Shown: positions 48,939-61,848, counted from the stretch's first letter. The stretch is DNA of 64,000 nucleotides from an uncultured Actinomycetes bacterium (GCA_963768605.1 CAVYIP010000008.1:102684-166683), one strand, 5' to 3'. Translations and numbers: made by a program. The notes: generated by a model from the letters alone, not told the origin.

Positions 48939-48998
48939 TGACCTGCGCTTCGTTGGTGGCGGGGGAAGGATTTGAACCTTCGACCTTCGGGTTATGAG
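48939..48998. repeat. 60-bp direct repeat (attL-like): orphan 3' 45 nt of tRNA-fMet plus 15-nt trailer
   Basis: Identical base-for-base to 61757-61816. Contains the CCA end to the anticodon loop but no 5' half. Confidence 0.9.
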
Positions 48999-49117
48999 AT
49001 CGCGCAGCGAGTGAACGAGAGTTGGCGCAAGTTCGCGTTAGTGCTGCTCGGGGTCACACTTGGTATAGCCGGAAGGCACGATTTGGACGCAAGTTGCGCT
49101 CCGTTTCCCAGAGTTGG

Positions 49118-49139
49118 GCTGACATCGCGCTGACATCGG
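49118..49139. repeat. tandem 11-bp repeat GCTGACATCG[C/G] x2 (candidate recombinase arm-type sites)
   Basis: gctgacatcgc gctgacatcgg, 120 bp inside the left repeat. A third copy lies at 61707-61717 in the same orientation. Confidence 0.45.
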
Positions 49140-49211
49140 ATATCCCGCGAATCGATCAGCGGAGAGGTTGTCCGGGACCCTTCCGTCAGCCGATTCACAC
49201 GGCCAGAGCGG

Positions 49212-49598
49212 TTAGCTGACCGGACCGAGACGGGCCTCTCGCCGCGCCCAGCGCTCGTGCCTGTGCTCTGCGAGCGGCGAAGGATTATCGCCGGTCCAGG
49301 CTGATAGAGGCACCGAGACCGCGAGGAAGCTGTCACGGAATCGGCCGTACCCGCTGGCGACGTCGACTGGCCCGCGGAGTCCCTCGCGAGCTTCGTCAGG
49401 CACGCAACAGAATGCCTTGTCGAGGTAGCGCTCGTACTCGAGGTCGAGTTCGGATCCGGTCTGTCCGAGATCGGCGATCTTGCACTTGAGGGCTTGAACT
49501 TCGTCCGCGAGTTCGTCCATAGCCTCGAGAACTTGGGTCGGGATGATCTTGTCAAGGTCGAGCCACGCCGGGATTTCAGGCGCGCTTGTGCTGGCCAT
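49212..49598 (-). CDS. hypothetical protein (island)
   Basis: ATG 49598 preceded by GGGAAGGAA. 128 aa, MASTSAPEIPAWLDLDKIIPTQVLEAMDELADEVQALK... No family recognised. Confidence 0.5.
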   Translation of the reverse strand: MASTSAPEIPAWLDLDKIIPTQVLEAMDELADEVQALKCKIADLGQTGSELDLEYERYLDKAFCCVPDEAREGLRGPVDVASGYGRFRDSFLAVSVPLSAWTGDNPSPLAEHRHERWARREARLGPVS

Positions 49599-49916
49599 GG
49601 AGGTTCCTTCCCTAGGACGCCTTCCGGGTTCGGCAGGCTGCCGCCAATGCACGTGCTGGCACTCCGTGAATGAAACGATCGCGCGCCGCACGGCGCTCTC
49701 GGTGGATTTCGCGTCTTGGTGCAGCCCGCGAGGTTGCCCGCGAGTGACCGTGTTTGACCGTGCCGAGTGGTGCAGCCGTGGTGCAAGGCAACGGTCCGTT
49801 CCTCCGCGGAGGTTGTTGCCGAAGAGCCGCCACTTGATCCCGGACGAGGCTCTCGAGGTGCTGAGGAAGCTTCTCGAGGCCCTCCGCGAGGTGAGGGATC
49901 TACGGCGTCGGATTGG

Positions 49917-50183
49917 CTAGCCGGACACCCATTCTCGAACTACGGCCCATCGGTAGCGGCGATGACCGCCGACTGTGCGCACCGACGGCAATCCACTCTG
50001 GGTTGGCCAGCGCCAGACCGTCTTCGGCGTGACGTTCAATAGCCACGCGACTTCGCTAGAGGAGAGCAGCGCCTCAAGCGCGGACCCGTAGGGAACCGTC
50101 TCGTGCGGCGCCCTGTCGGAAGGGTGACGGGCCGCGGGCTCGGTCGCCCATTCCGATGACCGGCTTTCTGGACTGGCCCTCAT
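49917..50183 (-). CDS. xis: excisionase-family helix-turn-helix DNA-binding protein
   Basis: C-terminal LLSSSEVAWLLNVTPKTVWRWPTQSGLPSVRTVGGHRRYRWAVVREWV matches the excisionase/MerR-like HTH pattern. Start may be internal. Confidence 0.7.
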   Translation of the reverse strand: MRASPESRSSEWATEPAARHPSDRAPHETVPYGSALEALLSSSEVAWLLNVTPKTVWRWPTQSGLPSVRTVGGHRRYRWAVVREWVSG

Positions 50184-50292
50184 GTGTCAGACGTCACCCG
50201 ATGTCCGTGTCGCGCGTCATGGAGCACTGGGGCAGCAGACGCATGATCGGCAGGCCATCCGAGGGAACCGCCAACGGGGCCCTCGGAGAAAA

Positions 50293-50344
50293 GGGGAAGG
50301 CGGGAGCCCAACTCCGCAAGGACCGGGGGGCTCCCGCCTTCCCC
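50293..50344 (-). terminator. perfect 17-bp-stem hairpin followed by TTTTCTCC on the minus strand
   Basis: ggggaaggcgggagccc - 18-nt loop - gggctcccgccttcccc. Followed by a T-run on the minus strand. Lies between a small membrane-protein gene and xis. Confidence 0.6.
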
Positions 50345-50646
50345 GTCGGTCAGTCTCAGGCCCGCCACCACCGCCGCCAGCTACCGCAGAAAGTGTTATC
50401 GGCTTCGGACTGGCCAGGCAGTGGGCGGCGCACATCAATGACGGTGATCGGACGCGCACAGATGTGCCGATATGGCGCGCCTGGCGGCTCTCATCTGCCG
50501 ACGTTCTGTGCGCCGTTCGGTGCGCGGAGGCCAGGCGCAGATCGGCAGTTCTGGGTGCCTATGACGAGGCGGCACCCAGACCTAAAGCAGCGTCGCTTTA
50601 TCCACGAAGCGGAGCCGATCGCTCGCCCCACTGGCCACGGTCCGAT

Positions 50647-59807: not shown

Positions 59808-59833
59808 TAGATTACGCAAGGGGCTGTAATCTA
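59808..59833. promoter_or_regulatory. perfect inverted repeat TAGATTAC-N10-GTAATCTA upstream of the island TetR gene
   Basis: 8-bp arms (9 with the flanking A/T), 24 nt upstream of GTG 59857. A second imperfect IR, ggcggtgta-tcgt-tacactgcc, lies at 59771-59792. Confidence 0.55.
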
Positions 59834-59856
59834 TTTGTCCGGTCGAGGAGGCCGCC

Positions 59857-60495
59857 GTGGCGACCAAGGATCGAGCCGCTGGGGACACCGACGGCGCGTC
59901 CCGAGGCCCGGGTCGACCCCGCGACGCCCGCCACGACCAAGCCATCCTCGACGCGACGCTGGGGATCCTGCTGGAACAGGGCTACCGGGGCGTCACCATC
60001 GAGGGTGTCGCAACCCGCGCCGGGGTCGGCCGGCCCACCATCTACCGCCGATGGCCTTCGAAGCCCGCAGTCGTCGTCGCGGCGCTCGTCCAGTCGGACC
60101 GGCTGGCCCTCCCAGCGCCGGACACGGGTTCGTTGCGAAACGACTTGATCGCCGTGCAACGCCATCAGGTCGAGCGGATGAACTCGCCCGACGCTCGCCG
60201 GGTCACGGCCGGGCTGATCGCGGATCTGGCCGACGACCCGGAGCTTGCCGACACCTATGTCAGCCAATTCCTGGCGCCGCGCCGGGCAACGGTATGGGAA
60301 GTCCTCTCACGCGGTGTCGACCGAGGAGAGCTCGACGCCGACGTCGATTTCGCCTTCATTTACGACCTGCTGGTCGGGCCGCTCTTCATGCGAGCCGTCG
60401 TATGGGGACAGCCGCTAGCGCCCGACGCCGCCGAAAAAACCGCAGACGTGATCCTGGCCGCATTCGCCCCAACCCCCAGGCGCTCACCCACCTGA
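59857..60495 (+). CDS. TetR-family transcriptional regulator (island)
   Basis: GTG start, 212 aa uninterrupted. HTH YRGVTIEGVATRAGVGRPTIYRRWPSK. Confidence 0.85.
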   Translation: MATKDRAAGDTDGASRGPGRPRDARHDQAILDATLGILLEQGYRGVTIEGVATRAGVGRPTIYRRWPSKPAVVVAALVQSDRLALPAPDTGSLRNDLIAVQRHQVERMNSPDARRVTAGLIADLADDPELADTYVSQFLAPRRATVWEVLSRGVDRGELDADVDFAFIYDLLVGPLFMRAVVWGQPLAPDAAEKTADVILAAFAPTPRRSPT

Positions 60496-60743
60496 CCGCC
60501 AACCGCAAGGCTTAGGGGCGGCCCGGGAGCCGGTGGACGAATCGCCGAGGCGACGGTTACGGCCGTGGTTCCCCGTCGCTTCAGTGCTGGTCGCGACGCC
60601 CACGGTGTGCCCCTCATCCGCACACAACGACACCTCCCGGTCACCACCTCGCAGCGCCATAACCGGCGATATGCACGGCGTGCGGTGTCGGGATGTCGTC
60701 GTACTTGACTGGCCCAGCTTGGGCCGCCGGGTTGTCGCTGCAC

Positions 60744-61326
60744 CTAGAGCTTGGACGGGAAGGTGAGGGTGCCGACCGCCTTGCTGGCGAACTTGGTGTG
60801 GGCGGTGCCGGTTGCGGGGTCGACCTTGACCGTGGTCGTCGTCGCGGTGGCGGTGAGGACGCCGGTGACGCCGGCGAAGTGTCCGGTGCCGCCGGTGAAG
60901 GTGTAGGTCGCGGGGTACCGGTTGGCGTGCGTGATGGCATCAGATGGTGATGGGTCCGGTATGAATCCCTCGGCGACGGTGCCGGTGAGATTGTCGCCGT
61001 GGGAGTCCGTGTAGGTGAAGGTCCAGACTGAGGTGGGCGCCGTCGAGGCTGGGTTGGCTGAGCGTGTAGGTGCCGTGACCGAGGTGTTTGGCGGTCCAGG
61101 TCCAGCATCCCATCCGCACCGGGACGTCGGGCGGAGCCGGACACTTGGTACCGCGAGGGTTATTCAGCAGGTTGTTTTGCGCGTCCTCGTATTCGTCCCC
61201 GGACAGGTGGATGACGGTGCGGTAGGTGTGTGGCCGCGAAGGCGCGTGCGGTGGGGCGGCGGCGGACGCGGGCCCGCCGATCGCGGCGAAGCTGCTCAGC
61301 GCGAGGAAGATCGTGAGTCTTCGCAT
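60744..61326 (-). pseudogene. secreted beta-rich hypothetical protein (frame-disrupted)
   Basis: ATG 61326. Signal peptide MRRLTIFLALSSFAAIGGPASAAA. After a switch near ~61010 it reads WTFTYTDSHGDNLTGTVAEGF...YTFTGGTGHFAGVTGVLTA...LTFPSKL-stop. Confidence 0.55.
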
Positions 61327-61706
61327 ATGAAACTCCGGGCCTCGGCGGTCATCCGTCCGGCGCGACAGAGCCACTCATAAAGCGCCGCTGTCAAGGGCAC
61401 GCCGATGTGCCGATCAGTGCGCGCCAACTCTCGCCGCCAACGTCGTTCTGGCGCGACATTCTGTGCGCCACTTGGTCGATGAGTTAGCCGAAAGGCTAGC
61501 CCACACATCGAACACTTGTTCGTATTCGTCACGTCACACATCAACGAAGCTGGGGGCAGTACGAGGCGCGGTTGCGCGCAATGCCTCCGCAGATCGCGTG
61601 GTCAGCGCTCGATCCCGGGGGCGAGAAGCTCGACGAGCCGACTCGTCGACAACTCCTGCCTACCGACGGGGTGTGTCCATCTCAGCGACCCCGGTGGTGA
61701 CAATCC

Positions 61707-61717
61707 GCTGACATCGG
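61707..61717. repeat. third copy of GCTGACATCGG, 40 bp inside the right repeat
   Basis: Same 11-mer and orientation as the tandem pair at 49118-49139. Confidence 0.4.
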
Positions 61718-61756
61718 CGACCGCACAACGGGCCGGCCCTCGGAGGCCGGCCCGTG

Positions 61757-61816
61757 TGACCTGCGCTTCGTTGGTGGCGGGGGAAGGATTTGAACCTTCG
61801 ACCTTCGGGTTATGAG
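61757..61816. repeat. 60-bp direct repeat (attR-like) forming the 3' part of the intact tRNA
   Basis: Identical to 48939-48998. Preceded by a different hairpin, cgggccggcc-ctcgga-ggccggcccg (61729-61754). Confidence 0.9.
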
Positions 61817-61848
61817 CCCGACGAGCTACCAGACTGCTCCACCCCGCG
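61772..61848 (-). tRNA. initiator tRNA-Met (tRNA-fMet, anticodon CAT)
   Basis: 77 nt: CGCGGGG TG GAGC AGTCTGGTA GCTC G TCGGG CTCATAA CCCGA AGGTC GAAGG TTCAAAT CCTTC CCCCGCC ACCA. GGG/CCC in the anticodon stem and a 1:72 mismatch are initiator hallmarks. CCA is encoded. Confidence 0.9.

Follow-up and report, generated by a model that had tools for sequence, protein, structure and literature searches.

An uncultured actinobacterium whose initiator tRNA-Met gene holds a 12,818-bp island without recognizable mobility genes

The question raised by the locus described here is how a stretch of DNA of foreign composition came to interrupt the initiator tRNA-Met gene of an uncultured Actinomycetes bacterium, and whether it carries the means to leave again. 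The DNA analyzed (hereafter the window) is a stretch of 64,000 nt (GCA_963768605.1 CAVYIP010000008.1:102684-166683) in which a 60-mer, TGACCTGCGCTTCGTTGGTGGCGGGGGAAGGATTTGAACCTTCGACCTTCGGGTTATGAG, occurs as two identical copies at positions 48939-48998 and 61757-61816, 12,818 bp apart from start to start. A reading made from the sequence alone (the sequence-only reading) had interpreted these as perfect 60-bp direct repeats, the attL/attR footprint of an element that had used the 3′ half of the tRNA gene as its integration site. The analysis reported below showed that the 12,818-bp segment is an insertion in the initiator tRNA-Met gene and that it lacks recognizable mobility genes. It is best explained, with a probability of about 0.7, as a non-autonomous genomic island, an integrase-less relative or derivative of the family of elements found at the same tRNA gene in related bacteria on contigs L082 and L094. 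To judge by how its nearest relatives are labelled, the host is probably an uncultured member of the Acidimicrobiia or of another group of Actinomycetota.

Insertion into the initiator tRNA-Met gene

An exact-match search gave the two copies of the 60-mer, with no third copy in the window at <=3 mismatches (0 expected in shuffles) and no partial third copy in the window by a 35-nt sub-pattern. The right copy overlaps the sole tRNA gene identified in the window by ARAGORN, a tRNA-Met(CAT) at 61772-61848 on the minus strand, which was also scored as tRNA by Rfam (65.6 bits). This copy takes in the last 45 nt of the tRNA, beginning with the first base of the anticodon loop and ending with CCA, and 15 nt of trailer; the left copy is without a tRNA 5′ half, so that the intact 77-nt gene and the orphan fragment described in the sequence-only reading were both recovered. 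Bacterial initiator tRNAs are marked by a mismatch at 1:72, three G:C pairs at the base of the anticodon stem, an A11:U24 pair and a CAU anticodon. The 77-nt sequence, read directly as CGCGGGG...GGGCTCATAACCC...CCCCGCCACCA, combines a C1xC72 mismatch with G29-31:C39-41, A11:T24 (A11:U24) and a CAT anticodon, and the gene is therefore that of an initiator-type tRNA-Met. Two unlike hairpins stand beside the 60-mers, at 48898-48938 and at 61728-61755, the latter with a perfect 11-bp stem. Base composition changes exactly at the repeats, and the interior has a GC content (0.658) below that of all 145 same-length windows outside it (0.676-0.709), in keeping with the lower GC content that had been expected of the insert.

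The sequence-only reading had suggested that relatives be searched for an uninterrupted site. This was done by collecting homologues of the DinB-like gene (TIGR03086/MDMPI_N by family assignment; 61929-62462, plus strand) that abuts the tRNA gene and comparing the contigs that carry them. One of these, L081, a metagenome contig of 2,843 bp from the Joint Genome Institute (JGI), encodes a DinB-like flank protein 97% identical to that of the window and has the gene order DUF899, a 310-bp gap containing tRNA-Met (tRNA-fMet), DinB-like gene and FAD oxidase. In the window, the DUF899 gene (PF05988; 47978-48802, minus strand) is the chromosomal flank on the other side of the insert. Specifically, L081 548-1574 aligned with window 47974-48998 at 97.0% DNA identity and L081 1515-2842 with window 61757-63085 at 97.4% DNA identity, the two alignments overlapping in L081 by exactly one 60-mer. 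The three-way alignment accordingly reads, for L081, as the left flank of the window, one 60-mer and the right flank of the window. L081 thus carries a precise empty site, the insert is real and its length is 12,818 bp, which places the attL/attR footprint proposed for the 3′ half of the tRNA gene on firm ground.

The same alignment separated the two hairpins, as only the one on the attL side is kept in L081: the terminator-like hairpin at 48898-48938 (minus strand), downstream of the tRNA in the empty site, is chromosomal and the tRNA's own terminator, and the hairpin at 61728-61755 is element-borne, a division that had also been anticipated. The attL 60-mer (48939-48998, minus strand), contiguous with the chromosomal flank in L081, is an orphan displaced 3′ fragment of the tRNA-fMet gene (45 nt) with its 15 nt of trailer and, we infer, the original chromosomal copy; the functional tRNA has its 3′ part and 15-nt trailer from the attR 60-mer (61757-61816, minus strand).

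A missing integrase at a site used by integrase-bearing elements

The coding capacity of the island was searched against Pfam using 20 candidate open reading frames (ORFs) and then every stop-free segment of at least 45 amino acids (aa) in six frames. The only domains returned were HTH_17, WhiB, MDMPI_N, TetR and Lipoprotein_15, and this six-frame search of the island gave no Phage_integrase, resolvase/large serine recombinase, DDE transposase, Rep, Prim-Pol or FtsK/Tra domain. This was extended with a profile built from three integrases of the same tRNA site, which found no match in any frame of the whole 64 kb. Having no recognizable recombinase, replication or transfer gene, the island is non-autonomous and could neither integrate nor excise on its own. 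In the island, PADLOC found no defence system, and PHROGs recognized only the HTH_17 and WhiB regulators, with no phage structural, packaging or lysis genes. Plasmid and phage collections contained nothing that matched the island by megablast, and scans of viral contigs gave one weak match only (43% identity over 42 aa, E 1e-4).

Relatives with flank proteins 82-88% identical to those of the window carry other islands at the same tRNA-fMet gene, each with a tyrosine integrase. In all, tyrosine-integrase islands at this tRNA were found in L082/L095, L084, L085, L094 and the P0243 contig, the contexts of P0243 and L094 having been picked from homologues of the L082 integrase (79% and 77% identity, respectively); the integrase genes lie at L082 7494-8582 and L094 10001-11152. 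The island of L082/L083/L095 encodes a Rv1264-type cyclase, methyltransferases, a radical-SAM protein, the integrase and a DUF433 protein. The P0243 contig contains DUF3631, HTH_17, a 183-aa gene and the integrase, next to the same DinB-like/FAD-oxidase flank as in the window, and L094 contains Prim-Pol/DUF3631, HTH_17, HTH_3, a 211-aa gene, the integrase and, in addition, a REase-ARP/PDDEXK_13 protein. The islands of L084 (4188-9681; HTH_17, regulator, integrase, ThsB_TIR, LD_cluster3, TIR_2 and Fic) and L085 (1157-6603; regulator, integrase, PycTM, a 320-aa protein and a WhiB/HTH protein) share a regulator-integrase module (89% identity in protein and 89% in DNA) together with ~90 nt adjoining the tRNA, and differ in the cargo that lies between the module and the tRNA-side part. 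The site is thus a hotspot of integration, and it behaves as a defence-island hotspot.

The island of the window is linked to these elements through its tRNA-proximal end. Homology with L082 begins 59 nt inside the island (61698) and not at the 60-mer, and window 61698-61848, comprising this element-borne arm (61698-61756, plus strand) and the tRNA, is 87-88% identical to L082/L095 and L094, the arm by itself being 86-88% identical. The arm shared with L082 consists of TGACAATCCGCTGACATCG, which includes a decamer at 61707-61716, followed by the 61728-61755 hairpin, which has the same stem and a different loop in L082. The corresponding arm of L094 (88% identical to window 61698-61848) shows tandem GCTGACATTC/TGCTGACATCG, a hairpin and then tRNA-fMet, and that of L084 and L085 is another sequence, GAAGATCCGTTAGAAGT, common to both. 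The proximal arm is conserved as a discrete module in three loci with different neighbouring genes; the integrases encoded beside it in relatives are 362-383 aa long.

Against an expectation of 0.31, the window has exactly three copies of the decamer GCTGACATCG, a count of 3 being reached in 0/100 shuffles. All three copies are on the plus strand at the ends of the island, one lying 41-50 nt inside attR and two in tandem 120-140 nt inside attL, at 49118-49127 and 49129-49138 (11-nt spacing), within an element-borne distal arm (48999-49140, plus strand). At the tRNA end, the decamer stands 56 nt from the 3′ end of the tRNA in both the window and L082. These decamers are putative arm-type sites and, at the level of sequence, the island keeps both att sites.

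A second occurrence of the left end was found in a metagenome scan with the 128-aa protein encoded beside attL. The contig obtained, L091, matches window 50479-50097 (88%) and 49757-48981 (92%, a level of conservation that includes the distal arm), so that the left end of the island exists in another genomic context. After the element arm, L091 has only CTCATAACCCGAAGGTCG (18 nt, L091 1394-1411), corresponding to the anticodon loop, the 3′ anticodon stem and the variable loop; beyond these 18 nt there is no T-arm, and the neighbouring genes, for a PNPOx-like protein and an enzyme of 588 aa, are unrelated. As the part of the repeat kept in L091 is its anticodon-loop end, the conserved core can be placed there, which fits the anticodon-centred attP class of Islander (PMC4383910). 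L091 itself may represent an attL that has decayed or else a secondary site of integration.

Within the repeat, the trailer's first 10 nt (TGACCTGCGC, plus strand; within 61757-61771) are invariant in 5/5 aligned loci, occupied or empty and from both arm families. The T-stem of the tRNA varies by lineage: the window and L081 have GAAGG/CCTTC, and the other lineages have GCGGG or GCAGG. This identity with L081, where other lineages differ, indicates that the attP of the element exactly matched the host lineage.

A further link to L082/L095 is an intergenic motif of 80-95 nt, present in five copies in the island, all on the plus strand, and nowhere else in the 64 kb. A repeat search placed these at 50442-50530 (copy A), 54836-54928 (B), 56727-56821 (C), 58238-58334 (D) and 61384-61478 (E), mostly just upstream of genes and in a fixed orientation to them, copy E being immediately upstream of a secreted-protein gene. 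The motif is composed of the conserved DNA blocks GCGCACAGAAC, CAGAACG, a ~20-nt spacer and GCGCACCG-ATCGGCACAT. It occurs twice in the L082/L095 island, at L095 1414-1485(-) and 6809-6875(-) (E 1e-7 and 5e-7, respectively), and its orientation relative to the downstream gene is alike in the two islands. An interpretation as a structured RNA was discarded, since Rfam gave no match and neither covariation nor a conserved fold was seen, and the motif is probably a repeated promoter/operator cassette.

Gene content and state of repair

The gene list of the sequence-only reading held for the most part: HTH_17, WhiB and TetR genes were recovered by Pfam and ORFs for secreted or membrane proteins are present, whereas the class III cyclase was recognizable only after four fragments had been stitched together. 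From the attL end, the first gene is a 159-aa ORF (49212-49691, minus strand), probably starting from ATG at 49598 to give a hypothetical protein of 128 aa, with no match in Pfam, PADLOC or PHROG. Read by eye, this protein is small, acidic and apparently helical; it has homologues in three metagenome contigs at 69-91% identity, of which those in L092 and L093 have no adjoining tRNA fragment. Next is a gene for a MerR-like DNA-binding protein of the excisionase-and-regulator type (49917-50183, minus strand) that matches HTH_17 (PF12728, E 1e-7) and phrog_66 (E 2.5e-6), the label of the latter being "excisionase and transcriptional regulator". The domain behind the earlier description of an excisionase-type helix-turn-helix (HTH) gene is thus present, but the link to an integrase is not: the gene lies at the far end of the island from the tRNA and next to no integrase, so that "excisionase" is to be taken as a domain-level statement only. 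Homology of this end of the island with the L084/L085 regulator-integrase module was considered and rejected on comparison, and tblastx/tblastn searches of the island against the integrase-bearing islands returned high-GC noise only and no shared protein.

The non-coding stretch upstream of the HTH_17 gene contains a perfect 17-bp inverted repeat with an 18-nt spacer (50293-50344), found in an inverted-repeat scan, which was the source of spurious matches to Rfam microRNA families. A 226-aa ORF called across this stretch (50156-50836) was set aside as non-coding, since it is unlike protein sequence and overlaps both the perfect hairpin and motif copy A. Further along the minus strand are genes for hypothetical proteins of 103 aa (50922-51233; GC content at third codon positions (GC3) 0.80) and 142 aa (51321-51749, from the ORF list) and two small ORFs of 109 aa and 73 aa (52436-52961), the second membrane-like, all with no Pfam, PADLOC or PHROG match. 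These are followed by a WhiB-family regulator (53018-53281, minus strand; PF02467 E 1.4e-17, phrog_472), an MDMPI_N/DinB-superfamily protein taken as cargo (54137-54832, plus strand; PF11716 E 2.7e-11) and a hypothetical protein of 76 aa without a family match (55354-55584, minus strand; GC3 0.82). A conserved hypothetical protein of 212 aa (57094-57732, minus strand) has 372 homologues in a widespread hypothetical family; as its relatives carry the gene in ordinary chromosomal, stress-regulon-like neighbourhoods, it is also regarded as cargo. A TetR-family regulator (59857-60495, plus strand; PF00440 and PF16859) stands nearer the tRNA. Apart from the Lipoprotein_15 repeats described below, the assignments to secreted or membrane proteins were made by eye from signal peptides and a membrane-like character of the ORFs.

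Frameshifts are apparent in three or more genes, namely that for the cyclase and a minimum of two for secreted proteins. The broken cyclase (55591-56568, minus strand) lies in four fragments in three frames, with frame changes near 56417, 56205 and 55836. Once stitched, it aligned over residues 2-290 with the Rv1264 adenylate cyclase of M. tuberculosis (PDB 1y10, E 3e-8), covering the regulatory and class III catalytic domains. The unstitched pieces had no Pfam match, and the intact cyclases of L082 and L085 used as tblastn probes gave no match, so that the gene was recognized only by manual stitching. A Lipoprotein_15 secreted protein (58422-58962, minus strand; two PF03640 matches in Pfam searches of six-frame segments) has its signal peptide and body out of frame, with the change near 58815, and six-frame translations of another secreted protein (60747-61326, minus strand) put its signal-peptide part and C-terminal part in different frames, with the change near 61030. 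These breaks, along with the roughly one third of the island that is without a convincing ORF, suggest decay. Coding density based on GC3 was 0.17 inside the island and 0.60-0.91 outside, a measure that is biased against foreign genes; as it also flagged possible frame breaks outside the island, it was dropped as proof of decay.

Two observations concern the chromosome to the left of the island. A gene for a pyridine-nucleotide disulfide oxidoreductase (45846-47135, minus strand) appears split near 46250-46316, with the catalytic part in one frame and the Pyr_redox_dim domain in another; this may be a pseudogene or an assembly indel, and bears on the trust to be placed in the frameshifts of the island. 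Window 47891-47973 (~83 bp between a glyoxalase-like gene and DUF899) is missing from the otherwise 97%-identical L081.

The DUF899 gene proved uninformative as a synteny anchor for the site, the 80 loci obtained matching only the gene and a leader of ~90 bp, without synteny. The matching block itself (47961-48889, the gene with ~87 bp upstream) is 78-96% identical in DNA in 80 loci of distant lineages, including Acidimicrobiia metagenome-assembled genomes, Streptomyces, Amycolatopsis and a bin labelled Chloroflexi. In many of these the homology ends sharply at ~47961 and ~48889, and flanking synteny was seen in 0/80. The block may be a gene of unusually high conservation whose 5′ leader is conserved as well, or else a single-gene unit that has been transferred widely. 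Its leader had no Rfam match, and exact-sequence look-ups of the DUF899 and FAD-oxidase proteins returned no record.

Origin of the island and comparison with known systems

A regenerated tRNA gene (tDNA) and a displaced fragment are known to mark the ends of islands, and tDNA targeting is known only for tyrosine integrases (PMC4383910), from which integration by a tyrosine integrase may be inferred here. As the arm of an integrase-bearing family is present without an adjoining integrase, the segment reads best as a relative or derivative of that family that has no integrase. A tyrosine integrase of the L082/L094 type would have recombined the tRNA gene with an element attP in which the tRNA sequence, starting at the anticodon loop and ending at CCA, was duplicated together with 15 nt of trailer. 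With a crossover at or near the anticodon loop, the tRNA would have been regenerated at the right end, followed by the element-borne terminator hairpin, and the displaced original 3′ fragment would have been left at the left end, followed by the chromosomal hairpin; the functional tRNA would now use an element-supplied 3′ half and terminator. The integrase gene may have been lost or may always have been supplied by another element, and the island would be movable only if another element supplied a cognate integrase. A simple deletion of int from an L094-like element does not fit, given the HTH_17 gene at the far end, the lack of a shared protein and the occurrence of the arm as a discrete module in three loci, and the island may have arisen by accretion or module exchange.

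A number of points weigh against this explanation. No cognate integrase was found in a search that covered the 64 kb of the window, and the distal att sites of the intact elements (L082/L095, L084, L085 and L094) were not found in the DNA examined. Beyond the 59-nt arm and the intergenic motif, no protein is detectably common to the island and the integrase-bearing elements, and the HTH_17 gene, far from the tRNA in the island, is ~1 kb from the integrase at the tRNA end in the intact elements. Possible frame breaks are also found outside the island (near 46.3 kb, with further candidates), so that its frameshifts may be assembly errors and the verdict does not rest on decay. Several ORFs are without a known family, which leaves room for an unrecognized recombinase. 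The island could then be autonomous, with a recombinase of a kind invisible to profiles among its hypothetical proteins, for example the 128-aa or 212-aa protein; seven ORFs have no family assignment and the 128-aa gene beside attL is conserved in other contigs (69-91% identity). This is very improbable in view of the known limitation of tDNA targeting to tyrosine integrases (PMC4383910), the canonical tyrosine integrase in every other occupant of the site and the features of the two candidates, namely the ordinary chromosomal contexts of the 212-aa protein and, for the 128-aa protein, its small, acidic and apparently helical character and the homologues that adjoin no tRNA fragment.

That the repeat arose as an artefact of assembly, through a join that is duplicated or chimeric and with no biological insertion behind it, might be suspected from the probable origin of the window in a metagenome-derived assembly and from the genes that read as frameshifted. 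The sequence-only reading had named an assembly duplication of the left 60-mer as grounds for abandoning its proposal. The flanks of the two copies differ on both sides and each is matched independently elsewhere, the left flank with the 60-mer in L081, the right arm with the 60-mer in L082 and L094, and the left arm with part of the 60-mer in L091. Together with the change of composition exactly at the repeats and an architecture that is canonical for tDNA islands, these independent matches to each junction exclude an artefact, and this reading can be considered effectively refuted. A more substantial alternative, although an unlikely one, is that the island is an active hitchhiker and no dead remnant, born or maintained without an integrase and moved in cis or trans by an element at the same tRNA-fMet att site, either by tandem accretion and joint excision, as in cis-mobilizable elements (CIMEs), or through satellite-like dependence on a helper. 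It would account for att sites identical over 60/60 nt, for decamer repeats kept in both arms, for the conservation of the proximal arm as a module and for the same left end at 88-92% identity in L091; the 97% relative without the island points to recent gain or loss, and mobilization of CIMEs by accretion is documented in Streptococcus (PMC6323972). Against it, neither a tandem array nor an attP junction nor a helper element was seen, the 18 nt of repeat left in L091 look more like decay than mobility, about a third of the island is without a convincing ORF and at least three of its genes read as frameshifted, and 60 identical bases are a weak sign of recency where the flanks differ by ~3%.

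A broader and more doubtful proposal is that the island is a working integrase-less satellite of an undescribed family of tRNA-fMet-targeting elements in uncultured Acidimicrobiia, in which an att arm of ~120 nt and the promoter/operator cassette would form a modular chassis, cargo would be exchanged and helpers sharing the arm would move the integrase-less members. If so, the exchanged cargo would include the Thoeris-like, Pycsar-like and restriction-type defence genes of the sister islands. For an uncultured actinobacterial lineage, the segment is a clean and fully delimited case of an island in a tRNA gene, the empty site of which was obtained from a metagenome. The initiator tRNA-Met gene is a recombination hotspot in uncultured Acidimicrobiia-like bacteria, used by at least two att-arm families, and the payloads at this site are interchangeable and partly defence-related. 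The integrase-less state with both att sites matters for annotation, as island finders that depend on an integrase would miss such an island, which also offers a natural substrate for testing trans-mobilization by L082/L094-type integrases. The element-family-specific motif and arm sites are among its modestly interesting aspects.

In comparison with the tDNA islands described by Islander, the present island is likewise bounded by a regenerated tRNA gene and, in direct orientation to it, by a displaced 3′ fragment. It also has a foreign composition, alternative islands in the same tDNA of relatives and an empty site in a collinear relative, and its identity block runs from the first base of the anticodon loop past the 3′ end as in the anticodon-centred attP class, the target in this case being initiator tRNA-Met. 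It differs in that Islander requires an integrase inside the island (PMC4383910) and none is found here. By the definition of ICEberg 2.0, a CIME retains attL and attR while its integration and transfer genes are absent (PMC6323972); having both att sites and no such genes, the island has the sequence features of a CIME and can be described as CIME-like. As with the Streptococcus CIMEs of the ICESt1/ICESt3 system, its att site is common to integrase-bearing elements of the same chromosomal site. In contrast to them, the host phylum is Actinomycetota, the related integrase-bearing elements carry Prim-Pol/DUF3631 with no conjugation module seen, and neither accretion nor mobilization was observed for the island, its descent from an integrative and conjugative or integrative and mobilizable element (ICE/IME) resting on the 59-nt arm and the repeated motif. 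The closest comparison is with the elements at tRNA-fMet that combine an integrase with HTH_17 and Prim-Pol/DUF3631 (L082/L095, L094 and P0243), which share with the island the site, the proximal arm (TGACAATCCGCTGACATCG and hairpin), an HTH_17 gene and, for L082/L095, the repeated motif; the island departs from them in being without an integrase and without Prim-Pol/DUF3631, in having HTH_17 at the opposite end and in the absence of a detected common cargo protein. Actinomycete integrative and conjugative elements (AICEs) such as pSAM2 and SLP1 integrate into tRNA 3′ ends with identity segments of ~40-60 bp and a Xis-type HTH protein, and encode Int, a Rep protein and a FtsK-like Tra translocase. 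The island resembles AICEs in its actinobacterial host, its integration at a tRNA 3′ end, the ~40-60 bp range of its identity segment and its Xis-type HTH protein, and differs from them in Int, Rep and FtsK-like Tra, all of which were looked for in the island by six-frame Pfam searches and not found. It therefore belongs to a well-known kind, the tDNA-integrated island, in an integrase-less form that retains its att sites; nothing in it departs from known biology, and the current understanding of how such islands work is unchanged.

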